Positions 68 to 33,025 are shown, counted from the stretch's first letter. The stretch is DNA of 33,243 nucleotides from Myxococcales bacterium (GCA_037441385.1 JBBISH010000073.1:1-33243); one strand, 5' to 3'. A program made the numbers and translations. The notes: a model not told the origin generated them from the sequence alone.

Positions 68-93
68 CGGTGTCAGGTATTGCCACTTGCCAC
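68..93 (+). repeat. isolated copy of the 5' motif of the 243-bp element
   Basis: CGGTGTCAGGTATTGCCACTTGCCAC is 26/26 identical to 13848-13873. Confidence 0.9.
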
Positions 94-3533: not shown

Positions 3534-3587
3534 GCCCGACCGCGTGCGGCCCAGCCACTTGGCGGTCAGACCGTCTCCAGCCCCCCA

Positions 3588-4772
3588 CTACCCCATCCCC
3601 AACCCCTCCGGCATCGTCCGCCGCATAAAAGCATCAAACATCGGCACGGTAAACGCCGTATCGCCATGCTGAGGGCTGTAAATCATCCCCTTCTTGATGA
3701 TGCCGGTCCGCAGCGGTGCACAGTTCTCCACCGGCTTGCCCAGCTTGGCGGCAATGTCGCCCGAGCGATGTGGTCCGGGCCCCAGCTCGGCCATCGCCCG
3801 CACATACGCCTTCTCCTTGGGCGTCAAGCGGTCGAAGCGCACCCGGAAAAAGCTCGCGTCCAAGCCGGCAATCGCCACGTCGGCGGCGGCTCGCGCGTCG
3901 GCCAGCGAGATGATGGGGCCAGCGGCAAGGTTCCAGGCCTGCTGCCCCCACTCTTGCAGGAAATAGGGGTACCCCTTTGTTTGTTCAACGATACTCAGTA
4001 TGGCCGCATCCTCGATCTCTGCGCCCTCGGCGACAATGGGCCCCCGCAGCGCCATGGCGGCCGCTTCCGGAGCCAAAGCGCCCACTTCTGGGAACTGAAA
4101 CAGCCGCTCTGCATACGACTTGGCCTCGCCCGCCAGCCCGGCCGTTTGCGGTAGGCCAGCACCGAACATCAGGAGCGGCAGACGTTTTTGACTCGCCCGA
4201 TGCACCGAGACCACCAGCGCCGCCAAGTCGGCCTCGCTCAAGTACTGGACCTCGTCAACAAAAAGCGCCACCGCCCGTTCATCGGCTTTGGCGGCCTCGG
4301 CCACGGTCAACAGCAGTTCAGGCAGATCGGCCTCCAGGTTGCCAGAGTCTGCGGTACCGGGTTCGGGCTCAATGCCCAGCTCCAGTTCGCCAAAGCTCAC
4401 CTTGAACACCGCAGCGAACGACCTCAGCACGCTCAGGCTTCGCCGCGCCAGATCGCCAGCTTTTTCAGACCGGCTGAGGCGATACAGGGCGGCGCGCAGT
4501 TTGGGGACCAGGCTCCGGGCAAGCGGCTGGTCCTCGGGCGACTCGATCACCACGTTCACGTAGCCCTTCGCTGCCGCCACGTCAGCCAAGTGATTGAGGA
4601 GCACAGTCTTTCCCACCCCGCGCAAGCCCAGCAGCATCAGGCTTTGGCTATTGCGGCCGTCGAGCACCCGGTCCAGCGCCACGTCGGCGTTGGCCAGGAT
4701 CGCCTCGCGGCCAGTCAACGCAGGTGGGGGCGATCCGGCACCGGGAGTGAAGGGGTTCTTGCGCGGGTCCAT
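3588..4772 (-). CDS. AAA-family ATP-binding protein (NPF/YTPGAG-type, probable C-terminal winged helix)
   Basis: N-terminal KNPFTPGAGSPPPALTGRE, Walker A GLRGVGKT, Walker B LFVDEVQ, GYPYFLQ, C-terminal FTVPMF; GGAGG RBS. Confidence 0.85.
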   Translation of the reverse strand: MDPRKNPFTPGAGSPPPALTGREAILANADVALDRVLDGRNSQSLMLLGLRGVGKTVLLNHLADVAAAKGYVNVVIESPEDQPLARSLVPKLRAALYRLSRSEKAGDLARRSLSVLRSFAAVFKVSFGELELGIEPEPGTADSGNLEADLPELLLTVAEAAKADERAVALFVDEVQYLSEADLAALVVSVHRASQKRLPLLMFGAGLPQTAGLAGEAKSYAERLFQFPEVGALAPEAAAMALRGPIVAEGAEIEDAAILSIVEQTKGYPYFLQEWGQQAWNLAAGPIISLADARAAADVAIAGLDASFFRVRFDRLTPKEKAYVRAMAELGPGPHRSGDIAAKLGKPVENCAPLRTGIIKKGMIYSPQHGDTAFTVPMFDAFMRRTMPEGLGMG

Positions 4773-4805
4773 GCAGCCTCCGGGTGGTTGTTAACTAACT
4801 ACCTA

Positions 4806-4834
4806 AGCATCTCATAGGCGCCACTAGATGTCAA
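4806..4834 (-). promoter_or_regulatory. putative sigma70 promoter of the AAA ATPase
   Basis: minus strand TTGACA (4834-4829), 17 bp spacer, GATGCT (4811-4806). Confidence 0.45.
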
Positions 4835-4881
4835 AGCTTCCTCTGGATCCCACCCCACCTTGCCCAACCTCCACCAACGAA

Positions 4882-4898
4882 CTAACCTGTTAGCTAAC
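4882..4898. promoter_or_regulatory. putative antitoxin operator
   Basis: CTAAC-CT-GTTAG inverted repeat overlapping palindrome GTTAGCTAAC, ~25 bp upstream of the antitoxin ATG. Confidence 0.5.
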
Positions 4899-4922
4899 CG
4901 GCCACCGCCGGCCCGAGCCGCC

Positions 4923-5153
4923 ATGCCGCGCGTCACCATCCACGCCGCCAAGACCCAGCTCTCGCGGCTCATCGTCCAGGCCTGCGCGGGTGAAGAGGTC
5001 ATCATCGCCCGCGACGACCTACCCGTGGTCCGGCTCGTGCCCATCGAGCCACCGCCAGCGCGACGCAAGTTTGGCGCATTGGCGGGCCAAGCTCGGGTCG
5101 ACGAGGCGTTTTTCGAGCCGCTGAGTGACGAAGAACTAGCGGCCTGGGAGTAG
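4923..5153 (+). CDS. Phd/YefM-family type II antitoxin
   Basis: MPRVTIHAAKTQLSRLI...GEEVIIAR...PVVRLVP...RKFGAL; directly upstream of a PIN toxin. Confidence 0.9.
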   Translation: MPRVTIHAAKTQLSRLIVQACAGEEVIIARDDLPVVRLVPIEPPPARRKFGALAGQARVDEAFFEPLSDEELAAWE

Positions 5154-5156
5154 CCG

Positions 5157-5543
5157 ATGCGCGTGCTGGTCGACACCCATGCGTGGCTGTGGTGGCTGGA
5201 CGGCGACGTTCGGCTCAGTGAACGGGCCCGCAGCGTGCTGGGCGACCCGACGAGCATGTGCCTGGTCAGCGCCGCCAGCGTGTGGGAAATTGCCACCAAG
5301 CACCGCCTGGGCAAACTGCCGGGTGCCGCTGCGGTTGCGGGGGATATCACGGGCACGATCGAGCGCCAGGGGTTCGTCGCGCTGGACATCGTCGCGGCCG
5401 ATGCCGAGCTGGCCGGCAAGCTGGCGGGCGAGCACCGCGACCCGTTTGACCGCATGATCGCTGCCCAAGCGCTGCGCCGCGACTTGCCCGTGATCACCGC
5501 GGATGCTCAGTTGCTCGGCCTGGGCGCGCGCCAGCTTTGGTAG
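5157..5543 (+). CDS. vapC: VapC-family PIN-domain toxin
   Basis: LVDTHAWLWW, VSAASVWEIATK, HRDPFDRMIAAQA, ITAD. Confidence 0.92.
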   Translation: MRVLVDTHAWLWWLDGDVRLSERARSVLGDPTSMCLVSAASVWEIATKHRLGKLPGAAAVAGDITGTIERQGFVALDIVAADAELAGKLAGEHRDPFDRMIAAQALRRDLPVITADAQLLGLGARQLW

Positions 5544-5558
5544 GGCGCGAGCGGCGGG

Positions 5559-6155
5559 CTACGTCAATGCCTGCCCCGTCTTGGGCAACTGCTCCGGCGT
5601 ATCCGTCCCCTCGTACACGTCTTCCAGCGCGCACTCCAGCCCCACGCTCGCCAGCTCGAACGGGCCGCTGACCTCGTACGTCAGGCAAAGCCAGCCCACG
5701 TCGCCTTGGCGGCGCAGGACCTCGATCTGCCGGTACTCCTGGGCGATCAAGACATACTCCTGCAGACTGGGCAAACGTCGATAAGCGTTGAACTTCTCGC
5801 GACGGTCCGTGAGCTCGGTCGACGGCGACAGTACCTCGACCACCAGGGTCGCGTCGCTCACGGCCTGGGTCGCGTCGGCCAGGTCGCCGCCGCAATTCAC
5901 CATCACGTCCGGGTAGTAATAGGCGTCCGCCTTGGCGACGTGGAGCTTGACGTCGGCGATCGATACCTGGCACGGCTTGCCGCGCAGGTGTCCAAGTAGC
6001 TTGGCCGCCAGATTGCCGGCAATGCGGTTGTGGCGTAGCGAGTTGCCGGCCATGGTGTGGATGCAGCCGCCGACGTATTCGTGGCGAATTGCGCTGTTTT
6101 CTTCAGTCCGCAAGTACTCGCCGGGTGTCGGCAGAGGTCGTTGCTGGGCGAGCAT
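5559..6155 (-). CDS. Uma2-family endonuclease
   Basis: RHEYVGG..MAG.S..HNRIAGNL, YYPDVMV, VEVLSPST...DRREKF..Y...PSLQEYVLI; GGAGG RBS. Confidence 0.9.
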   Translation of the reverse strand: MLAQQRPLPTPGEYLRTEENSAIRHEYVGGCIHTMAGNSLRHNRIAGNLAAKLLGHLRGKPCQVSIADVKLHVAKADAYYYPDVMVNCGGDLADATQAVSDATLVVEVLSPSTELTDRREKFNAYRRLPSLQEYVLIAQEYRQIEVLRRQGDVGWLCLTYEVSGPFELASVGLECALEDVYEGTDTPEQLPKTGQALT

Positions 6156-6253
6156 GGCAACCTCCGATCGTGCGAGCCCCTGCGGGCCCTTGTTAGCCTA
6201 CGCGCCGCGGGGGCGGGATCAAGGCGTCCGGTCGAGGTGTCATGGCGCTACCA

Positions 6254-6664
6254 CTACCCGCACCAATCCACCAGCTGCAGCCCTTCGACCCGCTCAAACT
6301 TCCTCGTATTATTCGTGACAAGTGTTGCCCCGTGCGCCACCGCCGTCGCCGCAATCAGGGTGTCGAGCGGTCCAATGCCGCTGCCGGTTCGCTCGAGTTC
6401 GGCGCGCACGGTGGCCGCTACCTTGGCCTCGGCCTCGCCGAACGGCACCACGCCCACCAGTTGCAGAAAACGCTGCAGCTGGGCTTCGCGCTCGGCCCGC
6501 CGCACTGATTTCTGAACGCCCACAGACAGTTCGTACGCCACCACGGCCGGCACCGCCACGGACCTGGGCGGCACGGCCAGCAGGCGCTCGGCAACCCCGC
6601 CGTGACCCTTGAAGAAGTGGATGACGATGCTCGTGTCGAGCATCCATTGCTCGGGCGCCAACAC
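6254..6664 (-). CDS. vapC: VapC-family PIN-domain toxin
   Basis: MLDTSIVI, ELSVG, IGPLDTLIAATA...LVTNNTRKFERVEGL; start GTG 6664 or ATG 6643. Confidence 0.9.
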   Translation of the reverse strand: MLAPEQWMLDTSIVIHFFKGHGGVAERLLAVPPRSVAVPAVVAYELSVGVQKSVRRAEREAQLQRFLQLVGVVPFGEAEAKVAATVRAELERTGSGIGPLDTLIAATAVAHGATLVTNNTRKFERVEGLQLVDWCG

Positions 6665-6891
6665 AGCACCTCGCGCGGGCGGTCAGGCGGAAGGCCACCG
6701 CGGTCGGGTGTGACGACGTCGCTGTCGCGCCACGCCCCGGCCAAGGCGGCTACGTCGGCCGGCCATGCTGTGGCGGCCCGCTCGCGCACCAAGTTGGCGA
6801 CCCATTTGCTCAGCGACAGGCCGGCGGCCGTTGCCGCGGCTCGCATTTGGGCCGAGGTTTCGTCGTCGATGTAGAGGGTGACTTGGGCCAT
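6418..6891 (-). CDS. ribbon-helix-helix/CopG-like antitoxin; expected stop at 6663-6661 reads TGT, so the ORF runs on to 6418
   Basis: GAGGA RBS; MAQVTLYIDDET...AGLSLSKWVANLVRE...WP...LAGAW; upstream of vapC. Confidence 0.75.
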   Translation of the reverse strand: MAQVTLYIDDETSAQMRAAATAAGLSLSKWVANLVRERAATAWPADVAALAGAWRDSDVVTPDRGGLPPDRPREVLCWRPSNGCSTRASSSTSSRVTAGLPSACWPCRPGPWRCRPWWRTNCLWAFRNQCGGPSAKPSCSVFCNWWAWCRSARPRPR

Positions 6892-6900
6892 GGCGTCCTC

Positions 6901-6920
6901 GCAAGTATACTTGCAAGTAT
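6901..6920. promoter_or_regulatory. putative operator: two overlapping perfect 14-bp palindromes
   Basis: GCAAGTATACTTGC (6901-6914) and ATACTTGCAAGTAT (6907-6920), 10-30 bp upstream of the antitoxin start. Confidence 0.6.
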
Positions 6921-7022
6921 GGGTGCTGCGGCGCGTCCAAGCAGCCGAACCCACGTGCAGCAAACTCTGACAATGTGCTATACTTCCAAGGCGCCCAGGC
7001 CTGGGTCGTCGCGCTGTTCGCC

Positions 7023-7340
7023 GTGAACCTGCTCCGCACAACTCCGCCCCAAGCCATGGTCGACGCCCGCGGCCGCCCCTACTTTCTGTGGGATTGCGAC
7101 ATGACGCTCGCCGAGCTGCATGCGGCGCTAGGCTCCAGTGACCGGAGCGAGCGCCTGGCGATGTTGGCTAAGGTCCTGCGTCAGGCCCGCCCGGAGGACG
7201 CGCTGCAGTTTGTCAGTCGTGCGGAATTGACGCGCTTGGAGCCGGAGTTGCGGCCTCTGCTGGGCGACAAGGCCGACTTCTGGCAGTTCTGGTGCGACGT
7301 GTGGCGCGCGAACACGGCCGCGGGGCGCCATGCCGGATAG
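7023..7340 (+). CDS. small hypothetical protein, probable antitoxin partner of the downstream nucleotidyltransferase
   Basis: RPYFLWD.DMT...KVLRQARPED...FW motif; overlaps the next gene; start uncertain (GTG 6975, GTG 7023 or ATG 7056). Confidence 0.7.
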   Translation: MNLLRTTPPQAMVDARGRPYFLWDCDMTLAELHAALGSSDRSERLAMLAKVLRQARPEDALQFVSRAELTRLEPELRPLLGDKADFWQFWCDVWRANTAAGRHAG

Positions 7341-7980
7341 CCTGAGTTCGCTTCAGAAAGAAGTGCTGGCGACCTTGGCGCAGGCCCAGCCGCCACCGGT
7401 GCTTTTTGGCGGTGCAGCGCTTCTGGGTACCGGACTGCAGCATCGGGTGACCCGCGACCTGGACTTGCTGTGGCAGCCCTGCGACGACTTGGGTGACGTG
7501 GCCGCCCAGGTGGATTACCTACTGCGCAAGGCCGGTTATGAGCCGGGCTGGCTGCAGCGTGCGCCGTGGCACCAGCGGACGGTGGTCGACAAGGGTGGCG
7601 AACAGCTGGTGATTGACCTGGTGGCCCATCCCGGCGCCGCGACCCGGCAGTTGGCGACGCTGCAGATTGGCTCCGCTTCCGTGCTGGTGCTGCGCTGGCC
7701 CGACATTTTGGCCGACAAGCTCGGCGCGCTGCTTGGCCGCCAAGAGGGTCGAGATCTGCACGATGTCATGGAGTTGCTGAGTCACGGCCTGGACTTGGCC
7801 GAGGGCCTGCTGGGGGCTGCCGAAGTCGACGGCGGATTTTCGGCGATGACACTTGCTTGGGTGCTGCGCACTTGGCCCATGCCGGCGGTAGCGAAGGCGG
7901 CGGGCTGGAGCGCGGAGCACACTGCGCGGATGGCCCAATTTCGCGACGAACTGGTGGCCCGGTTGACGGCGCTGGTCTAG
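7330..7980 (+). CDS. AbiEii/AbiGii-family nucleotidyltransferase toxin
   Basis: LFGGAAL...HRVTRDLDL, IDLV, ILADKLGALLGR...RDLHD. Confidence 0.85.
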   Translation: MPDSLSSLQKEVLATLAQAQPPPVLFGGAALLGTGLQHRVTRDLDLLWQPCDDLGDVAAQVDYLLRKAGYEPGWLQRAPWHQRTVVDKGGEQLVIDLVAHPGAATRQLATLQIGSASVLVLRWPDILADKLGALLGRQEGRDLHDVMELLSHGLDLAEGLLGAAEVDGGFSAMTLAWVLRTWPMPAVAKAAGWSAEHTARMAQFRDELVARLTALV

Positions 7981-8241: not shown

Positions 8242-10302
8242 ATGCCCTTTACGTACGCGTCGCGCTCGATTTCCAAAGTCGCTGTCATTGGTTCCGGTCA
8301 GATCGGCCCCGACATCGCGCTGCATTTTGCCAAGGCCCTCCAGTCCAGCGGCGTGCAGGTGGTCGTCATCGACGTCGCGGAGGCGGCGCTGCAGGCCGGC
8401 CAGGCGCGGACCTGGAAGAAGATCGACAAGGGCCAGGAAACAGGTGCCTTTTCGCCGGACCAGGCCGCAGCGATGAAGGCGTGCCTGAGCTTTACCAGCG
8501 ACTACAGCCAAGCGGCGGGCGCCGAGCTGGTGGTGGAAGCAGCGACGGAGGACGAGGGCCTGAAAGGGCGCATCTTCAAGCAGCTGGAGGCCCTGGTGGC
8601 GCCGGGGGCGATCCTGCTGTCCAACAGCTCGCACCTGGAGCCCGAGCGCATCTTTGCCAACCTGGGCGACAAGTCGCGGGCGGCGGTGGCGCACTACTTC
8701 TTCCCGGCCGAGCGCAACGTCGTCATCGAGATCGTCGCCGGCAAGGACACCAGCCCGGCGGTCGACCGCTGGCTGCGGCGGTTCTACGAGGCGATCGGCA
8801 AGGTGGCGATTCCCGTGAAGTCGCGGTATGGCTACGCCGCCGACCCGGTGTTCGAGGGCGTGTTCCAGGCGGCCTGCCTGTGCGTGGAAGAGGGCCTGGG
8901 CAGCATCAAAGAGGTCGATTTTGCCGCGCGCGAGGCCCTGGGCATGACGGTGGGGCCGTTCACCGCCATGAACTTGACCGGCGGCAACCCCATCACCGAG
9001 CACGGCTTGGACACGATGCACGAGCGGTTCGCCACTGCTCAATGGCTGACTCCGTGGTTCAAGGCGCCGAAATTGCTGAAAGACAAGCTGGCGGCCGAAG
9101 GTCCCAACGGCAAGTGGTTGGTCTGCGGTCGCGGCGAGACGGCGGAGCTGCCGCCCGAGCGCAAGGACGCGGTCCTCGATGCCCTGCGGGCGGCGTACCT
9201 GGGCATCACCTTTGGGATTCTGGACTCGGGGATCGTGACCCTGGGCGACTTCGAGCTGTGCATCGAGACGGCGCTGGACCAGATCGGCCCGTGCCGGCTG
9301 GCCAACCAGCTGGGGGTGCAAAAAGCCCTTGCGTTGGTCCAGGCTTACGCGGCGTCGCACCCCAGCATGGCCGTGCCGCAGACCCTGCAGCGGCTGGCGG
9401 CGGCGGGTACCCCCATCGACGTGCTGAACCTGGCGATCGAGGACGTGGCGGTGGCCGGTGGCGTGGTGCGGGTGGTGGCGATTCGCCGGCCCAAGGTGCT
9501 GAACGCCTTGAACGCCCAGACTTATCGGCAGATCGACGCGGAGCTGGCCAAAGCTGAGAGCGATCCCAACGTACTAGGTATGGTCATCACAGGTGCGGGC
9601 AGCAAGGCCTTTGTCTCGGGGGCGGATATCGGCGCGCTGGCCAAGGTGCAGACGCCGCAAGATGGTTACGATCTTGCCTATTTGGGGCAGTCGGTCGGCC
9701 GGCGCATCGAACTGGCCAAGAAGCCCGTGGTGGCGGCCCTGAACGGCCTGGCCTTTGGCGGTGGGCTGGAGCTGGCGATGGCCTGCCGCGCGCGCGTGGC
9801 GATCGCCGGCAGCAAGGCGCTGGCGGGGCTTCCCGAGGTCAACCTGGGCATTTTGCCAGGTGCGGGGGGCACCCAGCGGTTGCCGCGCCTCATCGGCTTT
9901 GACCGAGCCTGGCAGCTGATTCGCAGCGCCGGCACGCTGTCGTCGGCGCAGGCGCTGGAATTGGGGTTGGTGCGCGGGCTTTTCCCGGCCGATCAGCTGC
10001 TGGACGCGGCGGTGGCGCTGGTGGCGGACGCAGCCGCGGGCAAGGTCGACCTGCCGCGCCTGCACGAGGGGGCGATCGCCGAACGCGCCGAGCCAACGGT
10101 GGAAATCGGCCACCGCAGCCAGGCCGTCGACGCCATCGTCTGCGAGGTGATGCGTTCGGGCGCGGTCCTGGGCCTGGAGGCGGGCCTGCAGGCCGAGCTG
10201 AATGGCTTCAAGGACATCTGCGGCCTGGAAGACATGCGCATCGGCGTGCAGCACTTCGTGCAAAATGGGCCGAAGACTCCGGCGCCGTTTGTGCACAAGT
10301 AG
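8242..10302 (+). CDS. bifunctional 3-hydroxyacyl-CoA dehydrogenase / enoyl-CoA hydratase (dehydrogenase N-terminal)
   Basis: VAVIGSGQIG, VVEAATE...K, SNSS, HYFFP...EIV; crotonase motifs LNALN, AFVSGADI, GGGLELAMAC, GLPEVNLGILPGAGGTQRLPRLIG; AAGGA RBS. Confidence 0.9.
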   Translation: MPFTYASRSISKVAVIGSGQIGPDIALHFAKALQSSGVQVVVIDVAEAALQAGQARTWKKIDKGQETGAFSPDQAAAMKACLSFTSDYSQAAGAELVVEAATEDEGLKGRIFKQLEALVAPGAILLSNSSHLEPERIFANLGDKSRAAVAHYFFPAERNVVIEIVAGKDTSPAVDRWLRRFYEAIGKVAIPVKSRYGYAADPVFEGVFQAACLCVEEGLGSIKEVDFAAREALGMTVGPFTAMNLTGGNPITEHGLDTMHERFATAQWLTPWFKAPKLLKDKLAAEGPNGKWLVCGRGETAELPPERKDAVLDALRAAYLGITFGILDSGIVTLGDFELCIETALDQIGPCRLANQLGVQKALALVQAYAASHPSMAVPQTLQRLAAAGTPIDVLNLAIEDVAVAGGVVRVVAIRRPKVLNALNAQTYRQIDAELAKAESDPNVLGMVITGAGSKAFVSGADIGALAKVQTPQDGYDLAYLGQSVGRRIELAKKPVVAALNGLAFGGGLELAMACRARVAIAGSKALAGLPEVNLGILPGAGGTQRLPRLIGFDRAWQLIRSAGTLSSAQALELGLVRGLFPADQLLDAAVALVADAAAGKVDLPRLHEGAIAERAEPTVEIGHRSQAVDAIVCEVMRSGAVLGLEAGLQAELNGFKDICGLEDMRIGVQHFVQNGPKTPAPFVHK

Positions 10303-11117: not shown

Positions 11118-11306
11118 GCTGTTCCCCAAGGAGGCCGAGATTACGGCACAAGATCGAACGTTCGCTTTGGGATGCCCGGCCGGCGCGCGACCGACAACGC
11201 CAACTGGTGACAGTCGTTGCGGCTCAGACCCTTGCATGGCGGCGGACTTGGCGCTACACCACTGCCGCCGCGGCGCCCGACCGCGCCCCAACTTGCGAGG
11301 TTTCCC

Positions 11307-13841
11307 ATGCTCACCGCCTACCGTCAACACGTTGCCGAGCGCGCCACCCTGGGCATTCCGCCCCTGCCGCTGAATGCCGCCCAGACCCAAGAACTTACGG
11401 CGCTGCTGTGCAACCCGCCGGCCGGTGAAGAAGGCTTCTTGGTCGATCTGTTGACCCACCGCGTGCCCGCAGGTGTGGACGATGCCGCCAAGGTCAAGGC
11501 CGAGTTCCTGGACGCGGTGGCCAAGGACAAGACCGCCTGTGCGCTGATCAGCCGCGAGAAGGCCACAGAATTGCTGGGGACGATGTTGGGCGGCTTCAAC
11601 GTCAAGCCGCTCATCGAGCTGCTGGCCGATCCGAGCTGCGGCGCGCTCGCTGCCAAGGGCCTAGCGCACACGCTGCTGGTTTTTGACTACTTCCACGACG
11701 TGGCCGAACGCGCCAAGTCCGGCAACGCCCATGCCAAGGCGGTGCTGAAGTCCTGGGCCGAGGCGGAGTGGTTCACCAGCAAGCCCGAAGTACCCCAAAG
11801 CATTACTCTGACCGTGTTCAAGGTGCCGGGCGAGACCAACACCGACGACCTGTCGCCCGCGCCCGATGCCTGGAGCCGGCCCGACATCCCGCTGCACGCG
11901 CTGGCGATGCTGAAGAACCCGCGCCCGGGCCTGGCCGAGAAGCCGCTGCAGCTCATCGAAGAGCTGAAGAAGAAGGGTCACCCGGTCGCCTACGTGGGCG
12001 ACGTGGTGGGCACCGGCTCGTCGCGCAAGTCGGCCACCAACTCGGTGCTGTGGTGGACGGGCGACGACATCCCGTTCGTGCCGAACAAGCGCTTTGGCGG
12101 CTATTGCCTGGGCAACAAGATCGCGCCGATTTTCTTCAATACTCAGGAAGATGCGGGCGCGCTGCCGATCGAGCTGGACGTGAGCCAGATGGAGATGGGC
12201 GATGTGGTCGAGCTGCAGCCCTACGCCGGCAAGGCCTTCAAGAACGGCAGCGAGATCGCCTCGTTCCAGGTCAAGAGCGACGTGCTGTTCGACGAAGTGC
12301 GCGCCGGCGGCCGCATCCCGCTGATCATCGGCCGCGCCCTGACGGCCCGCGCCCGTGAGCACCTGGGGCTGCCGACGTCCACCGTGTTCCGCGCCCCGCA
12401 CGCACCCAAGGACACCGGCAAGGGCTTTACGCTGGCGCAGAAGATGGTCGGCAAGGCCTGTGGTGTGGCGGGCATCCGTCCGGGTACCTACTGTGAGCCG
12501 AAGATGACCTCGGTCGGCAGCCAGGACACCACTGGGCCGATGACGCGCGACGAGCTGAAAGACCTGGCCTGCCTGGGCTTTTCGGCCGACCTGGTGATGC
12601 AGTCGTTCTGCCACACTGCCGCGTACCCCAAGCCCGTCGATGTGGCGATGCACAAGGAGCTGCCCGGCTTCATGGCGACCCGCGGTGGCATCGCGCTGCG
12701 CCCGGCCGACGGCATCATCCACAGCTGGCTGAACCGTATGTTGCTGCCCGACACGGTGGGCACCGGCGGTGACTCGCACACCCGCTTCCCGATTGGTATT
12801 TCCTTCCCGGCGGGCTCGGGCCTGGTGGCGTTTGCCGCGGCGACCGGGGTGATGCCGCTCGACATGCCCGAGTCCGTGCTGGTGCGCTTCAAGGGCACCA
12901 TGCAACCCGGCGTGACGCTTCGCGATTTGGTCAACGCCATCCCGCTGTGGGCGATCAAGCAGGGCCTGCTGACGGTGGAGAAGAAGGGCAAGAAGAACGT
13001 GTTCTCGGGGCGGATCCTGGAGATCGAGGGGCTGCCGAACATCAAGATCGAGCAGGCTTTCGAGCTGAGCGACGCGTCGGCCGAGCGCTCGGCGGCGGGC
13101 TGCACGGTGCGGCTGGACCAGGCACCGATCGTCGAATACCTGAACAGCAACATCGCGCTCCTGACCTGGATGATCCAGCAGGGCTACCAGGATCCGCGCA
13201 GCCTGCAGCGCCGCATCGACAAGATGAAGGCGTGGCTGGCCAACCCCGAGCTGCTGGCGCCCGACGCCGACGCCGAGTATGCCGCGGTCATCGAGATCGA
13301 CCTGGCCGAGATCCACGAGCCCATCGTCGCGTGCCCGAATGACCCGGACGACGTGAAATTCCTGAGCGAAGTCGCGGGTGACAAGATCGACGAGGTCTTC
13401 ATCGGCTCGTGCATGACCAACATCGGTCACTTCCGCGCGGCGGCCAAGGTGCTGGACAACCAGAGCGACCTGCCGACACGCCTGTGGATCGCCCCGCCGA
13501 CCAAGATGGACCAGAAGCAGCTGATGGACGAAGGGGTCTACAGCATCCTGGGCAAGACGGGCGCGCGCATGGAGACGCCCGGGTGCTCGCTGTGCATGGG
13601 CAACCAGGCGCAGGTGCGCAAGGGCTCGACGGCGATGTCGACCTCGACCCGCAACTTCCCGAACCGCCTGGGCATCGACACGCGGGTGTACCTGGGCTCG
13701 GCGGAGCTGGCGGCGGTGTGCGCGCTGCTGGGCAAGATTCCGACGCGCGAGGAGTACCTGGCGCAAGTGGGCGGGATCGCGGGTAAAGCCGAGCAGATCT
13801 ACCGGTACATGAACTTTGACCGGATGGCGGAGTACGCGTAG
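11307..13841 (+). CDS. acnB: aconitate hydratase B (bifunctional 2-methylisocitrate dehydratase)
   Basis: [88 protein letters not shown]. Confidence 0.97.
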
Positions 13842-14083
13842 CCGAGTCGGTGTCAGGTATTGCCACTTGCCACATAGCCGCAACTGCCTGATCATAGTCA
13901 GTAGTTTCTTGGCGTCCCGGTGCGGCGGGTCGAGCGTGGGCAGGATCGCGCGCTCCCCGCCGCCCCGTCGCGCTACGGTCGCCGGGCCGAAGATCATTCA
14001 GGGGAAATCACGAGTTCCTGCGGCCCGGCGAAGGCAGCGCTTCGTCGCGCTACCTCGCTTCGCGCGCGTGTCGCTGACGCGGG
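13841..14083 (+). repeat. 243-bp structured non-coding element, copy 1
   Basis: gap-free alignment to 16749-16991, 213/243 identical; internal inverted repeats; begins at the last base of the acnB stop codon. Confidence 0.92.
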
Positions 14084-14190
14084 GATTCTTGTCCCCTCGG
14101 TGACGGCGAGCCAGTCGGCGCCCACGATGCTGTCTCCGGACCGGGGAACTGGAGTCATCCAGAAGCTGCGGCGCTACACGGCGTTACGCG

Positions 14191-14778
14191 TCATGGCGAA
14201 GCATCCCTGCGTGCCTGGCCAATCAGGCCGGGCGAAATCGTCCTGCCGCCTACCACTAGCTCGCCAGGACGTTGGCCAAGGTGCGGCGGACTAGGTAGGC
14301 CGCCCACTGCGGTGCCCCAAGGATAGCCAAAGCCTGAATCGGAGGCGCCGCGCCCAGTACTGGGCGGATACGCCAATGGACCAGCCCGCCAATGCACGGG
14401 ACCGAGGACCTTGACCCATTCGGCAAGATAAGTCGCACCATCGTCGGTCGAGTCTTCCTGAACAAGAAGCCGGTCATTTCGGCGATCGACAACGGAGACC
14501 GAAGCGACGTGTGTGGCGAGAACCGAGAGGTGCACGCTAGCCAAAGCAGCGTGCAGACACGCGAACAGCGCACAGACACTCGCACTCGACGACAGGGCGG
14601 GCCGCCGAGTCCGGCGTGCAAGCCAGGCCCAGCCGATCGGTCCAGCCAAAAAAGCGAGCGCGCCCATGTGTGGCAGGATTCCCGGTGCGTCAGGGTCGAC
14701 CCACAGTGGCGACAGAATCCAGGCCGTCGCGAGCCACGGCGCCAGTGCCAGAAGGAGCGGGTAGATTATCGGGATCAT
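14191..14778 (-). CDS. hypothetical membrane protein
   Basis: three hydrophobic segments in the N-terminal half; GGAG upstream of ATG; no family recognised. Confidence 0.55.
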   Translation of the reverse strand: MIPIIYPLLLALAPWLATAWILSPLWVDPDAPGILPHMGALAFLAGPIGWAWLARRTRRPALSSSASVCALFACLHAALASVHLSVLATHVASVSVVDRRNDRLLVQEDSTDDGATYLAEWVKVLGPVHWRAGPLAYPPSTGRGASDSGFGYPWGTAVGGLPSPPHLGQRPGELVVGGRTISPGLIGQARRDASP

Positions 14779-14862
14779 AAATGCTCCGGCGGCACGCCTT
14801 TGGGGTTTCCTGGGATTTGGACGCAGTTACGATGTGCCTTCAGGCGAGTCAATGCCTCCAGG

Positions 14863-15348
14863 TCACTGCCGGCCGCCAATCAGGTCATCCAAGTCCGTGG
14901 CAAACCGAAGCCCGGCAATCGCCTTCACAAAGTCCGCGCGCCGTCTGTCCAGGTCTGACCCGCGGCGAATTGGCGGCAGGCCACGCCAGACTCGTCCCAA
15001 CTCCTCGCACCCGGCGTTGCGGGCGTGCAGCCGTGCATCCTCCTCGCTATGCTCAAACTTCTCCTTGAGTTCGGAGACCGAGATGTGCTTGCCGCCCTTC
15101 AGTTCGACAAGTGCCAAGTCAACCACGTCGCCGCGGCGGAGCAAGAAGTGAACGCAGTCGCAATCGCGCCGACGGTCACGATGGTTGCCCACAACCGCCT
15201 TGAGCTTGGCCCCGTCGACGAGCATGTGCTCAAGATGTTGGCTATTCCTGCGTCCGAGGCCAGAGGCGCCGCCAAAACGGACGCCCTCGTCGGCGCACTC
15301 GCTCTTTTCGATGGCGGCAGATTGCGCGACCAGGTCGGGCCAGCCCAT
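14863..15348 (-). CDS. hypothetical protein with PD-(D/E)xK nuclease-like motif
   Basis: DCDCVHF...LALVELKGG; GGGGAG RBS; ATG 4 nt after the ATPase stop. Confidence 0.65.
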   Translation of the reverse strand: MGWPDLVAQSAAIEKSECADEGVRFGGASGLGRRNSQHLEHMLVDGAKLKAVVGNHRDRRRDCDCVHFLLRRGDVVDLALVELKGGKHISVSELKEKFEHSEEDARLHARNAGCEELGRVWRGLPPIRRGSDLDRRRADFVKAIAGLRFATDLDDLIGGRQ

Positions 15349-15352
15349 CGAA

Positions 15353-16774
15353 CTACTCCCCCGTTGTCGAAGCGGCCCGGAGATCCGTAAGGGCGGCGTG
15401 CCGGTTGAAGAGGTCGCTTGAGGAATCCAGCCAATTCGCGCGGTCGAACCCATCATACGGGTCAAAGGGGATTTCGCGAGCAGTATACCCATCGCCGACT
15501 GCGCTTCGTCCAAACCGATAGACCGCTACGCTTGCTGGGGCCAGGCGCTCGCATTCGGGTATCTCGGCTGCCGCCGTTGTACCTGCCTCGGTCGCTCGCA
15601 GGATCCAGCCGAGCATGTCGACCAGCAGCTCACTGTGGGTGGTCACCACGAAGCGAACTCCCGCATTTGTGAGCCGTGCGAGCGCACGGGCCAGCAGAAT
15701 CTGCTTGGCCGGGTGGAGGTGCGCCTCCGGCTCTTCCAGCACGGCGAGCGTGCCCTGCCGCGCGAGCTTGCGCAGCATGAAGGTCACCGGCGCCAGTTCC
15801 GCGACACTGGAAGAGGCGCGGTCCATCGGGATGCGATTCCCGTCCACCACCACATCCAAGGTGGGAACCACGGTGGGAAGCGGCCGGCGATCGATTCGGC
15901 CGCCGTGGAGCATGGCCTCTACGGCGTCAACCTCCGCACTCAGGCTGCCGTCGGGCGCGGAGCCCGCCAGCCGATACTGCTCCAAGAATTCGCTCGCCGG
16001 GCCGGCAAGCTCAATTTGGCGCGCGTGCGCAACCGCGAGAAGTCGCTCCACAAACGGCCCTGTTGAGGCCATGCCTGTTCGGCCGGCCGGCAGGTAGAGT
16101 GGCGGTGGGCCAAATCGCTCCTGGAAATTCAATGCCAGGCGCCGCAAAAGCGCGCTCGCCAGCACCCGACCAAGATGGTCGTCGGCAATTTGACCGCCCA
16201 CGGCAAACCGTTGACGCTCAGCCCACTGCGCAGCCCACGCCAAGTCGAAGTACGGCTCGCCAGCGGGTGACACAAACAGGTGCGAGTAGATAACTGCGCC
16301 CTGGTGGCGACTTTTGAGTTCACCGCGGTCAGGTTCACTAACAGAAATTGCCAACGGGGCGGTGGCGCCAAACCGCTGGAGTTCCGCCACTGTGGTCGCG
16401 CCAAGAAGTTGCAGCGGACCGGATACCACAGCCCTCGCCAGGTGGTTGCCCAGCAAGTCCCTCGCGCCGGCGATCCAATCCCGAAAGGAGGCGTCGTCCT
16501 CGGCACGCAGCGGCTGGCCCTGCTTGATTTGGCCCAGGAAAGCGGCCGGACGACTGGCAATCTGCTCCACCAAGCGCGCCACTTCTGCGGGATAGCCTGG
16601 GAACCGTGAACTCCCATCCAGTGCGGTGGCAAGCTCTTGGCCTGCCCGGGCAAAGCTGTACAGTGCCGCGGCCGTGAAGCTCTTGCCCGACCCAGAATCG
16701 CCCACAAAAATCGTGAGGGGGCGCGGCCGAATCCGGGCTGACGCTACCGCCGAGTCGGTGTCAGGTATTGCCAC
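15353..16774 (-). CDS. ABC-type AAA ATPase (AAA_15/AAA_21-like); first ~9 codons lie inside repeat copy 2
   Basis: RPLTIFVGDSGSGKS, YLPAGRTG, ASSSVAELAP, LEEPEAHLHPAKQ, VTTHS. Confidence 0.85.
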   Translation of the reverse strand: MAIPDTDSAVASARIRPRPLTIFVGDSGSGKSFTAAALYSFARAGQELATALDGSSRFPGYPAEVARLVEQIASRPAAFLGQIKQGQPLRAEDDASFRDWIAGARDLLGNHLARAVVSGPLQLLGATTVAELQRFGATAPLAISVSEPDRGELKSRHQGAVIYSHLFVSPAGEPYFDLAWAAQWAERQRFAVGGQIADDHLGRVLASALLRRLALNFQERFGPPPLYLPAGRTGMASTGPFVERLLAVAHARQIELAGPASEFLEQYRLAGSAPDGSLSAEVDAVEAMLHGGRIDRRPLPTVVPTLDVVVDGNRIPMDRASSSVAELAPVTFMLRKLARQGTLAVLEEPEAHLHPAKQILLARALARLTNAGVRFVVTTHSELLVDMLGWILRATEAGTTAAAEIPECERLAPASVAVYRFGRSAVGDGYTAREIPFDPYDGFDRANWLDSSSDLFNRHAALTDLRAASTTGE

Positions 16775-16991
16775 TTACCACATAGGCGCAAGGGCTTGAT
16801 CGCCGGCAGTCGCCTTTGGGCGTCCCGGTGCGGCAGGTCGAGCGCGGGCAGGATCCTGCGCTCCCCGCCGCACCGTCGCGCCACGGTCGCCGGGCCGAAA
16901 ACCATTCAGACGCAATCGCAAATTCCTGCGGCCCGGCGAAGGCAGCGCTCCGTCGCGCTACCTCGCTGCGCGCGCGTGTCGCTGACGCGGG
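16749..16991 (+). repeat. 243-bp structured non-coding element, copy 2
   Basis: direct repeat of 13841-14083, offset 2908 bp. Confidence 0.92.
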
Positions 16992-17004
16992 GGGCCACAA
17001 CGTC

Positions 17005-17037
17005 GCATCTTGACGCGCATCACGATGCAGCTATCCT
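17005..17037 (+). promoter_or_regulatory. promoter and operator of vapBC (probably leaderless mRNA)
   Basis: TTGACG (17010-15), 16 bp spacer, TATCCT (17032-37), then 6 nt to ATG; GCATC-AC-GATGC palindrome (17017-28) and an extra GCATC at 17005. Confidence 0.6.
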
Positions 17038-17043
17038 GAATCC

Positions 17044-17298
17044 ATGCGCACCACCCTCACCATCGACGACGACCTGCTCGACCAAGCCAAGCGCCAGGCC
17101 CTCGACCTCGGCATCTCGCTGAGCGACGCCGTGTGCCGCCTGCTCCGCCGCGGCCTCGCCGCTGACACCGCCCAACCGCGCCACTTCGAGACCATCACCT
17201 ACGGCGACCCGCACCCCCCGGCCATCGACTGGGCCGCCGGCCGCGTCACCCTGGACGCCGAAGACGAGCAGTGGCTCCGGCGCAAGGCGGGCTTGTGA
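17044..17298 (+). CDS. vapB: VapB-type RHH antitoxin
   Basis: MRTTLTIDDDLL..AK..A...GISLSDAV..LLRRGL; GTGA overlap with the toxin. Confidence 0.88.
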   Translation: MRTTLTIDDDLLDQAKRQALDLGISLSDAVCRLLRRGLAADTAQPRHFETITYGDPHPPAIDWAAGRVTLDAEDEQWLRRKAGL

Positions 17299-17717
17299 AA
17301 GTCCTTGACGTCAACGTGCTCGTCCACGCTCACCGCCGCGACGCCGAGCACCACGCCGCCTGCCGGCACCTGCTGGATCACTCTGAGCCGGCGGAGGAAT
17401 TTGGCCTGACCATGCCGGTGTTCAACGGCTTTTTGCGCGTCGTCACCCACCCGCAGCTGCTGCAGCCGCCCACGCCGCTCGCCCACGCCCTGCACACCGT
17501 CGCCGAGTGGAGCGCGCGCCCCAACGTCCACTGGCTGGCCCCTGGCGAGCACCATTGGCGGATCTTTCAGGCGCTGTGCCTGCGGTACCAAGCCGCGGGC
17601 AGCGCGTTCTACGACCTGCACCTGGCGGCGCTGGCGATCGAGCGCGACGCCGAGCTTCTGTCGCTGGATCAGGGGTTTGCCCGCATTACCGAGCTGCGCT
17701 GGCGGTCGCCGGCGTAG
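17295..17717 (+). CDS. vapC: VapC-family PIN-domain toxin
   Basis: VLDVNVLVHAHR, GFLRVVTHP, DLHLAALAIE...LLSLDQGFAR. Confidence 0.9.
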   Translation: MKVLDVNVLVHAHRRDAEHHAACRHLLDHSEPAEEFGLTMPVFNGFLRVVTHPQLLQPPTPLAHALHTVAEWSARPNVHWLAPGEHHWRIFQALCLRYQAAGSAFYDLHLAALAIERDAELLSLDQGFARITELRWRSPA

Positions 17718-17725
17718 GGAGCACC

Positions 17726-17756
17726 ACCTCGCTGCGCGCACGTGTCGCTGACGCGG
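17726..17756 (+). repeat. isolated copy of the 3' end of the 243-bp element
   Basis: 30/31 identical to 16960-16990. Confidence 0.88.
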
Positions 17757-17772
17757 TCCCGCCCCAACCGCC

Positions 17773-18921
17773 TCACGGACAGTTCGCGAACGGCCCGCTT
17801 GGAACCTTCACGAACCCTTTGGCCGGGTAGCATGGCGTGACGCACCAGTCGCCGCTGGGCTGCCACATCAGGTTTTTGCCGGCCTGGCACGACAGGCCCG
17901 ACTGGTGGCACGCCTGCAGCACCGGCTTGCTGCCGCCGTTCAGCGTATTGGGCCACCAGACCTTGCCTGCAAACCACAGGTCGCCCTCGTAGAGGGGGAC
18001 GCCCGTGATCTCCGCAGCTTTCTGCCCCTGGATGAACACCGCGACCGAAGCCTTGGACAGGCCAAAGCCGTTGTCGCTCTGGTAGTGCACGCCTACAGCG
18101 TAGGCGACCGGGTCGGCCGGCGTGCCTTCGGGGCCCTTCATGCGCGCGAATTCCGGTCCGGCGCCGTCTTGGTCTTCGATGTCCATCTCGGGATTGTCGA
18201 GTACGCTGCCCACGTCGCCCCACTCGGGCAAGTAGTTGAACCAGAAGCAGTCAAAGGGGTTGCTGAACCATGGGTCGGGCGCGCCGTCGCAGTCCAGGTC
18301 CGGCTGGGCGGCCATCTCGTGGGCAAGGTGCAAGTCCAGGTCCGTACCGGCGCCCGGTCCTGTGTCGCTCTGGTCGGCGTCGGCCGGCGTGTCCCACAGC
18401 AGCTGGACGTACAGGGCGGCATTGGGCACCACCTCGACGGTTTGGCAGGCCGGGGCGCAGCTCGGCTGACCCAGGTCGTCCCATACGCTCAGGCAGAACG
18501 TGTAGGTGCCCGCCGCGGTGACCAGCATCGAGGCCTTGGCCGGCGACGAAGTGGGCAGGAATTTCTGCCACGAGCCACCGGGTTGCGTGGCCTCCCACAT
18601 GTACTTGCCCACGGACTTGCCTTGGGCCGAGGCCTTGGACCCGCTGCCGTCCAGGTGCAGGGTCGTCCACGGCACCACCGCCTCGCCTTCGGCCACTGTC
18701 ACCACAGGTTGTGCTTGCGGGCACGGCGGCGCGGGCGCGGCGTCGGCGGTCGAATCTGCTGCCATCGCGTCGGCCGTCGAGTCCGCGCCCTCGGTGTCGG
18801 CGGTGATGTCGGCTGGAGCGCTGGAAATGTCCCCGGCGCCGGCCTTGGACGACGGGGCGGGCGCGCAGGCGGCCACTGTCGCGGCAGCAAGAAAGGCAAC
18901 GATTTTGTCAAGATTGCCCAT
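17773..18921 (-). CDS. lipoprotein with PKD/Ig-like domain and DLDLH-containing C-terminal domain
   Basis: GAGGAG RBS; lipobox VAAC; LDGSGS...YMW...AGTYTFCLSVWD; LLWDT...TDLDLHL...DGAGPE. Confidence 0.8.
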   Translation of the reverse strand: MGNLDKIVAFLAAATVAACAPAPSSKAGAGDISSAPADITADTEGADSTADAMAADSTADAAPAPPCPQAQPVVTVAEGEAVVPWTTLHLDGSGSKASAQGKSVGKYMWEATQPGGSWQKFLPTSSPAKASMLVTAAGTYTFCLSVWDDLGQPSCAPACQTVEVVPNAALYVQLLWDTPADADQSDTGPGAGTDLDLHLAHEMAAQPDLDCDGAPDPWFSNPFDCFWFNYLPEWGDVGSVLDNPEMDIEDQDGAGPEFARMKGPEGTPADPVAYAVGVHYQSDNGFGLSKASVAVFIQGQKAAEITGVPLYEGDLWFAGKVWWPNTLNGGSKPVLQACHQSGLSCQAGKNLMWQPSGDWCVTPCYPAKGFVKVPSGPFANCP

Positions 18922-18961
18922 GTGACTCCTCGCAAGCGCGGCCCCGTGGCCAGACCGCCGA

Positions 18962-19387
18962 CTAGCCCACCACCGCCGCCACCACACTTGCCAAGACTGC
19001 CAGCGCCAGCGGCACCAGTACAGCCAAATTCGCCAGCAAGCTCAGCCAGGTCCACAGCGTGCGCGGCCGTTCGGCAAACGCCATGAGGCTCGCACCCAGC
19101 CCCACGAGGGCTGCGGCCGCTGCCACGCCGACGGCCGCCAAGCCCGCGCCGGCCAAGACGATGAGCGAGCCGAGGCCCGCCCACTCGCCACCTGCGTGCT
19201 CTGCCGGTTCGGCCAAGCGCTGGAACAGGAGATAGCCAGCGATGGTCCCGGCGAGCGGCAACACCAAGCCGATCCACGCGCCAGCGGGGGTTCGCGCGGG
19301 CTTGGGCCCTGGCTCGGGTTCCGGCCCTGGCTCGGGTTCCGGCCCCGGCTCCGGTGCCAGTGCGACAGGGGCAGGCTCGTCGCTCAT
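18962..19387 (-). CDS. hypothetical membrane protein with N-terminal PEPGPE repeats
   Basis: GGGAG RBS; three hydrophobic segments; 18-bp tandem unit near 19305-19352. Confidence 0.7.
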   Translation of the reverse strand: MSDEPAPVALAPEPGPEPEPGPEPEPGPKPARTPAGAWIGLVLPLAGTIAGYLLFQRLAEPAEHAGGEWAGLGSLIVLAGAGLAAVGVAAAAALVGLGASLMAFAERPRTLWTWLSLLANLAVLVPLALAVLASVVAAVVG

Positions 19388-19586
19388 GCTTCGACTCCCG
19401 GGCGCAAACCAGCGCGGCTTCCCCGACCACTCGGACGATACGCCGCGGCGGCGCAAGGGTCCAGCGCCGATTGGTCAAGGGGGCGTCCAGGACACAATGC
19501 GTTGACCCTCTTGGGGGAATAGGGACGGGCGGTGGACAAGTCCGGTGGCGCGGTGCTACGGTCGCGCCCACCCTGCGGAGCTGCCC

Positions 19587-19943
19587 ATGGACAAGCCCAA
19601 TGCTGACACCGTCGCCTGGTACGAGCGCTTGGTGCCCACCGACCCCCGCGCCGAAAAAGGCCAGATGTTCGGCTGCCCTTGCGCCTTTGTGGCCGGCAAT
19701 CTGTTCTTTGGCACCTTTGCCCAGACCCTGATTGCGCGGGTGGGCGAAGTCCGCGCGGCTGAGCTGGTCCGCCCCGGCGTGCAGGTGTTCGAGCCGATGC
19801 AAGGCCGCGCCTGGAAGGAATATCTGCAGTTCCAGCCGGGTGCGACCCACGACGCGGAATTGGCCAAGCTGGCCCAAGAAGCGCTGGAGGCGACGGCGCA
19901 GCTGCCAGCCAAGGCCAACAAAGGCAAGAAGGCCGCCAAGTAG
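19587..19943 (+). CDS. TfoX/Sxy N-terminal-domain family protein
   Basis: GQMFGCPCAFVAGNLF...FEPMQGRAWKEY; GGAG RBS. Confidence 0.8.
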   Translation: MDKPNADTVAWYERLVPTDPRAEKGQMFGCPCAFVAGNLFFGTFAQTLIARVGEVRAAELVRPGVQVFEPMQGRAWKEYLQFQPGATHDAELAKLAQEALEATAQLPAKANKGKKAAK

Positions 19944-30803: not shown

Positions 30804-30883
30804 AACGGATCCCCTTGCGTCGGGTTGGACCACTGCGTACCTCGCATGGCGCCTCTCGTGATGAGTGGTGCATGGGTCAGGGC

Positions 30884-33003: not shown

Positions 33004-33025
33004 GGCGGCGCTAGCCGCGCGCGGG

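Follow-up and report, generated by a model that had tools for sequence, protein, structure and literature searches.

To our knowledge, little is known, beyond integrons and a few Xer-based plasmid modules, about how fixed chromosomal sites come to stack and exchange small defence and toxin-antitoxin units. A complete integron requires the integrase IntI, with its extra domain, whereas a cluster of attC sites lacking integrases (CALIN) does not, and the attC sites themselves, bounded by the motifs RYYYAAC (inverse core) and GTTRRRY (core), fold into one imperfect hairpin that has R and L boxes, a central spacer left unpaired and extrahelical bases. In the parts of PMC4889954 that deal with such clusters, a CALIN consists of two or more same-strand sites separated by less than 4 kb, and attC sites resemble one another more closely inside an array than across arrays; an excerpt of PMC13108822 describes toxin-antitoxin cargo as prominent in integron arrays. 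The stretch of DNA considered here (the window) is 33,243 nt long and comes from Myxococcales bacterium (GCA_037441385.1, JBBISH010000073.1:1-33243). Downstream of its aconitase gene acnB, two direct repeats, R1 and R2, and a truncated third, R3, bracket an ATPase operon and a vapBC toxin-antitoxin pair, an arrangement that an earlier note, made from the sequence alone, had taken for an integron-like gene-capture array. The repeats contain a folded core of ~177 nt, which is best read as a new structured repeat family restricted to one uncultured myxobacterial genus, and we put at about even chances the proposal that this genus-specific core acts as portable homology through which recombination turns cassettes over.

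The genome that holds the window (G000; 6.6 Mb in 221 contigs, 90.9% complete) was compared with fragmented metagenome-assembled genomes (MAGs) of 61-94% completeness, the genus being represented by 11 genomes, and genes beyond the window were called with a custom codon-score caller that misses atypical genes. When R1 was searched by BLAST against its own genome, positions 8-42 matched about 20 places, mostly at 100% identity, and positions ~118-244 (71-244 in some copies) matched about 15 places at 68-78%. The 243-bp unit is therefore a composite of two unrelated repeat families, a 29-nt motif of the repetitive extragenic palindromic (REP) type and the ~177-nt core, and the earlier notion of a single 243-bp structured element holds for the structure but not for the single unit. 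Searches of the genome and its relatives, which the earlier note had suggested, were productive: an iterated hidden Markov model (HMM) found 40 core copies in G000 and a covariance model 41, a copy number far beyond chance, and copies are present in 6 of the 11 genus genomes.

The core begins at TTGGGCGTCCCGG, as judged from the upstream flanks, ends in CGCTGACGCGG and is 176-204 nt long. An alignment of 39 copies (A2) yielded a consensus fold, and the covariance model was built from the same alignment. The fold comprises 38 pairs in 7 helices with 3 branch points over 180 model positions, such that the ends of the element pair together, a 9-bp helix carries a variable insert, and the 3' domain is multi-branched. 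Across the alignment 98.3% of cells are paired, and 16 of the 38 pairs have changed on both sides (68 cells); none of 500 shuffles reached the observed value, and sliding the partner by 1-3 columns reduced pairing to 31-55%. Wobble cells are balanced, with 7 G-U against 7 C-A/A-C, so that the data favour neither strand as the one that folds, and neither RNA nor DNA as the folded molecule. Rfam 15 returned no match at E<=1 for window positions 13500-18200 or for 15 other copies.

A covariance-model scan of 37 genomes of the family, with at most 72 candidates scored per genome and copy counts that are thus lower bounds, gave 41 copies in G000, 22 in G007, 15 in G005, 12 in G009, 2 in G001 and 1 in G002, and none in the 26 genomes from the family's 13 other genera. 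A degenerate core pattern run against 185,579 species (one genome each) produced 33 matches, all in 5 groundwater and lake MAGs whose titles give uncultured Myxococcota, Myxococcales or 'Deltaproteobacteria'. Metagenomes of the Joint Genome Institute (JGI) contributed 7 short contigs (1.1-3.2 kb), one of which has two co-oriented copies 1.45 kb apart. No description of the core was found in those excerpts of the literature that concern Myxococcota repeats and integrase-less cassette arrays.

All 40 HMM matches are intergenic, save one that overlaps a doubtful gene call, the median distance from the core to the upstream gene is 85 nt, and many single copies lie between ordinary genes (thioredoxin/NifS, pta-ackA, fpg, cysteine synthase, ribosomal protein S1). 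It is conceivable, though we consider it quite unlikely, that the core is an RNA or DNA element serving the host, such as a transcript-end stabiliser, an insulator or a protein-binding site, and that the arrays reflect short transcription units together with local duplications. Such an element would be intergenic and close to upstream genes, as observed, could well sit beside thioredoxin, pta-ackA and ribosomal protein S1, and would show covariation as a mark of selection on the fold; REP elements are said, in the part of PMC3479197 concerned with their roles, to act in IHF recruitment and mRNA turnover. However, the orientation of the core to its flanking genes is mixed (12, 5, 11 and 9 of 37 copies in four classes), the wobble pairs favour neither strand (7 versus 7), the family has no Rfam match and is confined to part of one genus, hence is no conserved housekeeping device, and the turnover of cargo at fixed loci, described below, would be left unexplained. 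A riboswitch or leader was rejected on account of the same mixed orientation.

The copies of G000 are clustered: 23 of the 39 full copies lie within 6 kb of another, whereas random intergenic placement, repeated 2000 times, gave 2.2 on average and 12 at most, and neighbouring pairs within that distance are co-oriented without exception (14/14). One contig, C64, has five copies, C44, C102 and C18 have three each, and five further contigs have two each. The units in these arrays consist of one to five genes running in either direction; by Pfam and PADLOC matches, the cargo in and next to the arrays includes AbiEii with an antitoxin, HipB/HipA, an RHS fragment, DUF4160/DUF2442 pairs, AbiLi/AbiLii, AbiU (AIPR) and Imm8, with PtuA nearby; arrays of the relatives carry DUF4160/DUF2442 pairs, RhuM, HicA, PIN_3, an MNT-type nucleotidyltransferase, a YhcG nuclease and AAA_14-DUF4143. 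Association with such genes was scored with a strict list of our own (AbiEii, HipA, PIN/VapB, DUF4160, DUF2442, AAA_15/21, RloB, AIPR, Imm8, HepT, GmrSD and RHS), applied to the two called genes on either side of a site. A listed gene was present at 18 of 39 core copies and 9 of 25 core loci, compared with 1 of 20 random intergenic sites (at least 150 nt long and more than 10 kb from any core copy), giving Fisher p values of 0.0011 by copy, where copies sharing an array are non-independent counts, and 0.027 by locus. At another random site there is an RVT_1 reverse transcriptase, which is off the list and was not counted. The suggestion that copies preferentially flank defence genes is upheld to the extent of this enrichment, but 16 of the 25 loci have no listed gene within two genes, and this, together with the mixed orientation to neighbouring genes, counts against the capture reading. 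No recombinase recurs among the 202 called proteins within 4 kb of a copy, and the neighbour clusters that do recur are Cys-rich secreted proteins and PKD proteins. Genes adjacent to cores have a slightly lower codon score (median 0.295 versus 0.334, p=0.0004), a weak measure given a caller that misses atypical genes, and do not differ in G+C at third codon positions or in length.

The acnB locus of the window is organised as follows.

11217..13841, plus strand: acnB (aconitate hydratase 2), the conserved left flank, with Pfam Aconitase_B_N, Aconitase_2_N and Aconitase matches; its orthologues adjoin arrays in G007 and G005
13841..14084, plus strand: R1 composite repeat, 88% identical to R2 over 244 nt, ungapped
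13849..13877, plus strand: REP-type motif of R1 (module A, variant 1), whose 18-nt core motif occurs at 38 genome sites with at most 2 mismatches
13908..14084, plus strand: core of R1, the ~177-nt structured element, scoring 121 bits with the covariance model; a member of alignment A2
14191..14778, minus strand: 195-aa open reading frame (ORF), a possible small membrane protein by hydropathy; the real gene may be shorter
14863..15348, minus strand: 161-aa ORF (216 aa from an upstream TTG), without a Pfam or PADLOC family
15353..16705, minus strand: AAA_15/AAA_21 ATPase (Pfam) of a rare defence-type family
16749..16992, plus strand: R2 composite repeat, with its REP motif at 16757-16785 and its core at 16816-16992 (131.5 bits)
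17010..17037, plus strand: promoter-like site upstream of vapB, TTGACG-16-TATCCT, a consensus match only (9/12 consensus positions)
17044..17298, plus strand: vapB-like antitoxin gene, with weak DUF6364, VapB_antitoxin and CcdA matches, all below cut-off
17271..17717, plus strand: vapC, a PIN-domain toxin gene (Pfam PIN, 51 bits)
17721..17756, plus strand: R3 stub, only the final ~36 nt of the core, 92-97% identical to the ends of R1 and R2
17773..19387, minus strand: G000-specific segment with a PKD-domain protein (17773-18921, Pfam K319L-like_PKD) and a 141-aa ORF (18962-19387)
19545..19943, plus strand: TfoX_N-domain gene (Pfam TfoX_N match below cut-off), the start of the conserved right flank

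R1 begins at the stop codon of acnB, and the starts of R1 and R2 are 2908 nt apart. The two align without gaps at 87.7% over 244 nt (~214/244), in close agreement with the 213/243 reported before, and all three repeats are on the plus strand, the uniform direction that had also been claimed. A fresh duplication was rejected, as it had been in the earlier note: there are 30 differing positions and relatives carry the same array. R3, placed previously at 17726-17756, is real but slightly longer (17721-17756). With regard to the cargo, which is partly as described before, the ATPase and the PIN protein have Pfam matches, the VapB-like protein has weak matches below cut-off, and the promoter-like site is a consensus match; the labels 'membrane protein' and 'nuclease-like' are unproven. 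The 195-aa ORF exceeds a hydropathy of 1.6 only in windows within residues 1-27 and 61-97, has no Pfam or PADLOC match and was not predicted by the codon-score caller; the 161-aa ORF matches nothing in Pfam or PADLOC, none of its nearest protein-atlas clusters has a name, and its sole hint of a nuclease is a D...ELK stretch spotted by eye. PADLOC models for PD-T4-4_A and AriA match only the C-terminal ~75 residues of the ATPase, which has 12 relatives at E<=1e-10 (its own entry included) among 5.8 billion clusters, the closest 51% identical. No integron-type or other tyrosine-recombinase match is present on the window contig and no transposase family was found among the window genes scanned, in accord with the earlier note. 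At the level of reads, viewed as assembled Logan contigs from three DNA runs of one study, a contig covers 13852-21200 with zero differences from the window. An apparent joint of 13873 to 19311 was rejected as an excision product: one side is only 25 letters long, and the letters inserted at the joint are those of REP motif copies elsewhere, so that it was treated as repeat cross-matching. A CRISPR-like array was also rejected, the spacing being 1-5 kb with genes in between.

The gene acnB was found in 5 of the 11 genus genomes, and the order of features after it is given below.

G000: R1, ATPase operon, R2, vapBC, R3 stub, PKD gene and 141-aa ORF, TfoX_N/lgt genes
G007: internally deleted copy, DUF6188 and DUF2442, full copy, 301-aa ORF, full copy, vapBC, then TfoX_N/lgt genes (window 19545 onward)
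G005: copy, ParB-HTH protein and HigB/antitoxin (PD-Lambda-2 A/B), copy, unrelated genes
G009 and G001: small ORF, pyruvate phosphate dikinase; no copy, different synteny

The acnB dock is common to three species, and its cargo differs among them. In G007 an orthologue of the vapB-like gene precedes the PIN gene, no R3-like stub follows vapC, the segment 17773..19387 is missing, and the TfoX_N orthologue (80% amino-acid identity) comes directly after vapBC. A second locus behaves likewise: flanking genes of contigs C139 in G000, C170 in G005 and C345 in G007 share 86-87% nucleotide identity, and the cargo is a PKD protein in G000, DUF4160/DUF2442 with RhuM in G005, and AAA_14-DUF4143 with DUF4160/DUF2442 in G007. 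The AAA_14-DUF4143 gene of the latter is 78% identical to a gene that lies 7 nt from a different copy on G000:C18. The expectation that relatives would hold arrays at the same places was thus answered at two loci with different cargo. Empty acnB loci, which the earlier note hoped for, did not materialise: acnB in G009 and G001 has no copy, but since synteny differs too these are not clean empty sites. In a wider comparison of filled and empty sites, 51 copies in relatives had flanks that could be used, and for only 1 of them did both flanks match G000, where the site holds another repeat. This other intergenic family (…AGTTCCGTCCGAATCGGATCGAAAAC…), which occupies the G000 site where G007 carries a core copy, is found at G000:C62:9813-9998, C120:~9300-9410 and C195:~203-330.

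Sequence relationships among copies suggest how the arrays came about. For 72 copies from six genomes, the nearest relative was on the same contig in 32 of the 42 cases where the contig has multiple copies, and in the same genome in 41 of those 42; mean core identity is 0.874 within contigs and 0.680 between them. Within each species all copies of the acnB array have signatures peculiar to that species, the two in G005 being 97% alike, yet the R1 core's 5' spacer matches the acnB-proximal G007 copy, which makes a mosaic pattern. This likeness within arrays is concerted evolution or repeated local recombination. On C64 the shared blocks extend 56-480 nt past the repeat and take in paralogous cargo, and are segmental duplications; on C139, positions 5551-5823 equal 6359-6631 at 94% (273 nt) around a 161-aa gene; on C44, the 3' end of a thiolase gene (1101-1407) recurs at 3449-3776 with 86% identity, so placed that a broken second thiolase copy surrounds a DUF4160/DUF2442 pair and a repeat. 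Judged by their sequence, long non-repeat duplications of this kind around inserts appear to be the footprint of homology-driven (Campbell-type) integration of kin DNA. The fragments of the second thiolase copy (86%; G000:C44:1986-3776, L062) constitute a pseudogene resembling an import from a related species.

We infer that joining proceeds by general homologous recombination and not by a dedicated enzyme. The family is intergenic; some copies stand alone next to ordinary genes, and others form same-direction arrays in variable loci. Kin DNA carrying a copy, whether circular or linear, would recombine with a resident copy, either by Campbell-type integration or by a double crossover between two copies, after which unequal crossover and gene conversion between neighbours could duplicate, delete and homogenise units. 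The expected outcome would be arrays of repeat and cargo in which the cargo changes from one species to the next and toxin-antitoxin and defence genes abound.

Several observations sit uneasily with such a scheme. Homologous recombination leaves the compensatory upkeep of a multi-helix fold unexplained, and a fold kept by compensatory changes points instead to a protein that recognises the folded strand, or to a role as RNA. Copies that are 84-97% alike over 180 nt are also short, diverged substrates for RecA. Strict co-orientation (14/14) and arrays kept at the same loci in three species would fit a site-specific system as well. Furthermore, two 9-nt direct repeats (CCGTCGCGC) exactly bound the internal deletion of the first G007 copy, and the start of the R3 stub is close to the second one, so that the 9-nt repeat could mark a preferred crossover site. 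Finally, no excision product or empty site was seen in the assembled contigs to which the survey extended.

A site-specific system is the alternative closest to the earlier note, in which the folded core is the site of an unrecognised recombinase encoded elsewhere and undergoes exchange in the manner of attC x attC or attI, with a different chemistry and a different site. We think this unlikely, though by no means negligible. The core would then be where recombination takes place in a gene-cassette system of Myxococcota not known before, a functional integron analogue unrelated to IntI/attC, an idea that we tend to doubt; a recombinase or a folded-strand mechanism would stack and swap toxin-antitoxin and anti-phage units at fixed chromosomal docks, the 3' end of acnB among them, which is again a minority expectation. 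The same-direction arrays (14/14 pairs), the cargo rich in toxin-antitoxin and defence genes and its turnover at two conserved loci are all features that a site-specific system would generate, as are sites more alike within than between arrays, which is the pattern of attC in the relevant part of PMC4889954; a covarying fold is expected of a site that is read as a folded strand, and the deletion and the stub both end at the internal 9-nt repeat. Nevertheless, no integron integrase was recognised in the 11 genus genomes, where the best TIGR02249 score was 92.9 bits (71 bits in G000) against a cut-off of 265 and none of the 11 passed, these genomes being 61-94% complete and absence therefore unproven; nor is there a recurrent recombinase among the 202 proteins near copies. 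Partial copies end at model positions 38, 65, 72 and ~95, and since they break at differing points no single crossover site is apparent. The units of one to five genes in either direction and the 16 of 25 loci that have no defence cargo are difficult to accommodate, as is the existence of a distinct subfamily in each array of one genome, which free exchange by one enzyme would mix, and the arrays are in part plain segmental duplications. Of the integron-like capture reading there remain the structure, the co-oriented arrays, the enrichment of cargo and the relatives' arrays with different cargo at the same two loci, but not a common breakpoint. The other option given in the earlier note, a unit derived from a miniature inverted-repeat transposable element (MITE) or from REP that promotes acquisition of cargo, fits better than a dedicated integron-like machine.

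The REP motif in R1 and R2 raises the question of mobility. Its 18-nt core occurs 38 times in the genome at no more than 2 mismatches, in two variants, of which R1 and R2 carry variant 1. Inverted variant-1 copies flank a gene for a REP-associated tyrosine transposase (RAYT-1; 323 aa; contig C120; L110:623-1594), which scores 25.5 bits with Pfam Y1_Tnp against a cut-off of 23 and has its last codons and stop within the REP motif, and inverted variant-2 copies flank a second Y1/RAYT gene, RAYT-2 (C37:45417-46316). The 29-nt motif, with a RAYT gene between inverted copies, is the classic REP-RAYT arrangement. The 177-nt core has no match on C120, and both RAYT flanks show the 29-nt motif only; contexts of the C37 type gave one weak core match, missing from the HMM list. 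Of the recombinases that the earlier note would look for, RAYT genes are present and tied to the REP motif, but none could be tied to the core. We regard it as very unlikely that the core is itself a non-autonomous single-stranded DNA element, a large derivative resembling a paired REP hairpin element (REPIN), that is moved by one of the two Y1/RAYT transposases and forms arrays by repeated insertion beside existing copies. A fused REP motif accompanies all full copies of the G000 and G007 acnB arrays, both RAYT genes lie between inverted REP copies, and RAYT homologues occur in 5 of the 11 genus genomes, all 5 with the core; hairpins with compensatory changes are, moreover, what HUH enzymes recognise. 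However, that co-occurrence is confounded, for the same five genomes are the acnB-bearing subclade, and numbers do not run in parallel, G001 having 11 RAYT matches and 2 cores while G000 has 2 RAYT matches and 41 cores. Neither RAYT gene is adjoined by a core, and most cores are without the REP motif. There is no duplicated flank or target-site pattern among 37 core flank pairs, and no orientation bias to the G-rich strand, agreement with GC skew being found at 15 of 25 loci (p=0.42). Nor does the core pass as a MITE of the DDE type, which has terminal inverted repeats and a target-site duplication: its terminal pairing is only 5 bp (GCGTC/GACGC).

Further repeats accompany these families. An extra REP copy is located at window 69-94, and as its ~130-nt surroundings are identical to the end of another contig (G000:C88:48-73), this repeat probably broke the assembly there. 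REP variant 2, ending in TTTT, is often followed directly by microsatellite-like runs of the hexamers GGAGCC, GAACCT or GGATCA (for example G000:C89:16294, C124:6943 and C100:23116). A short repeat, GGGGGGCAWTTTCTAC plus ~25 nt, has 149 motif matches in G000, 109 of them away from the core (e.g. C6:104231-104461 and C28:52360-56275), and 1-3 copies of it occur within the variable loop and just upstream of many cores. Following the motif GGGGGGCAWTTTCT, which lies beside many core copies, revealed at contig ends a multi-copy stretch at least ~360 nt long; at 96-98% identity it terminates six G000 contigs (C2, C21, C23, C42, C139 and C178), adjoins the motif GGGGGGCATTTTCTAC and looks like a gene's 3' end that encodes a hydrophobic tail. 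It was rejected as the end of an insertion sequence (IS), its reading frame having no likeness to a transposase by eye.

Elsewhere in the window, positions 3588-7980 encode an AAA_16 ATPase, a Uma2 endonuclease-like protein and a PIN protein, as well as a 121-aa ORF with AbiEii after it; this second toxin-antitoxin and defence islet has no copy of the 177-nt core, which was counted against the capture reading. Very large Cys-rich repeat proteins are encoded on the minus strand at 25212-30899 and 30927-33101 (Dicty_CTDC repeats, 1895 and 724 aa), and also at 270-3533. They are the source of most internal repeats in the window, and their paralogues recur beside core copies.

Whichever mechanism operates, a new covariation-backed motif, absent from Rfam, brackets toxin-antitoxin and defence units in arrays, and at two conserved loci sister species carry different cargo. 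Should the fold be read by a dedicated enzyme, cassette capture would have been invented a second time, independently; should plain homologous recombination be responsible, it would be a clear natural case of a dispersed repeat acting as portable homology for the flow of accessory genes in an uncultured, repeat-rich predator lineage. In either case the covariance model provides a handle for locating variable defence loci in these genomes.

By the tests of membership, the core arrays are neither an integron nor a CALIN, though they are alike in outline. As in those systems and in sedentary chromosomal integrons, accessory units are bounded by folded repeats that share a strand and are spaced at less than 4 kb, the repeats are more similar within arrays than between them (0.874 versus 0.680), toxin-antitoxin genes are among the cargo, and the cargo varies among relatives, yet the repeat itself is no attC. 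Both end motifs, RYYYAAC and GTTRRRY, are found near the ends of none of the 39 copies on either strand, and either motif anywhere in 2 of the 39, in keeping with the lack of attC-type ends noted earlier; IntI was not found in the 11 genomes. The core is 176-204 nt long with seven helices and three branch points, whereas attC, as compared by description, is one imperfect hairpin. Core units are often multi-gene, run in either direction and can have promoter-like sites of their own, and singles lie beside ordinary genes.

Similar differences emerge with other repeats and modules. In common with REP/REPIN-RAYT elements and bacterial interspersed mosaic elements (BIMEs), as characterised in parts of PMC3116915, PMC3337134 and PMC2817692, the core is intergenic and lineage-specific, has tens of copies and shows compensatory hairpins, and the 29-nt motif 5' in R1 and R2 is a typical REP with a RAYT gene between inverted copies. 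Unlike them, the 177-nt core flanks neither RAYT gene, is several-fold longer and multi-branched, and is arranged in direct orientation at kilobase spacing instead of in inverted pairs. The minimal mobile elements and repeat-rich intergenic mosaics of Neisseria likewise occupy fixed sites between conserved genes, where strains or species differ in their accessory cassettes, which are swapped via flanking homology (in the relevant parts of PMC3787668 and PMC3082526). There the homology is that of conserved flanking genes, whereas here a dispersed structured repeat brackets each unit and the units stack. The pdif sites of Acinetobacter are 28-bp XerC/XerD sites of alternating orientation on plasmids. 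Like the units described here, the modules they bound, among them accessory, resistance and toxin-antitoxin modules, are small, often of the toxin-antitoxin type, delimited by repeated sites and shuffled between replicons with no recombinase of their own (portions of PMC6449649 and PMC13141974). XerC/D-like genes are present in all 11 genus genomes; the core, in contrast to pdif, is ~180 nt long, folded, directly oriented and chromosomal.

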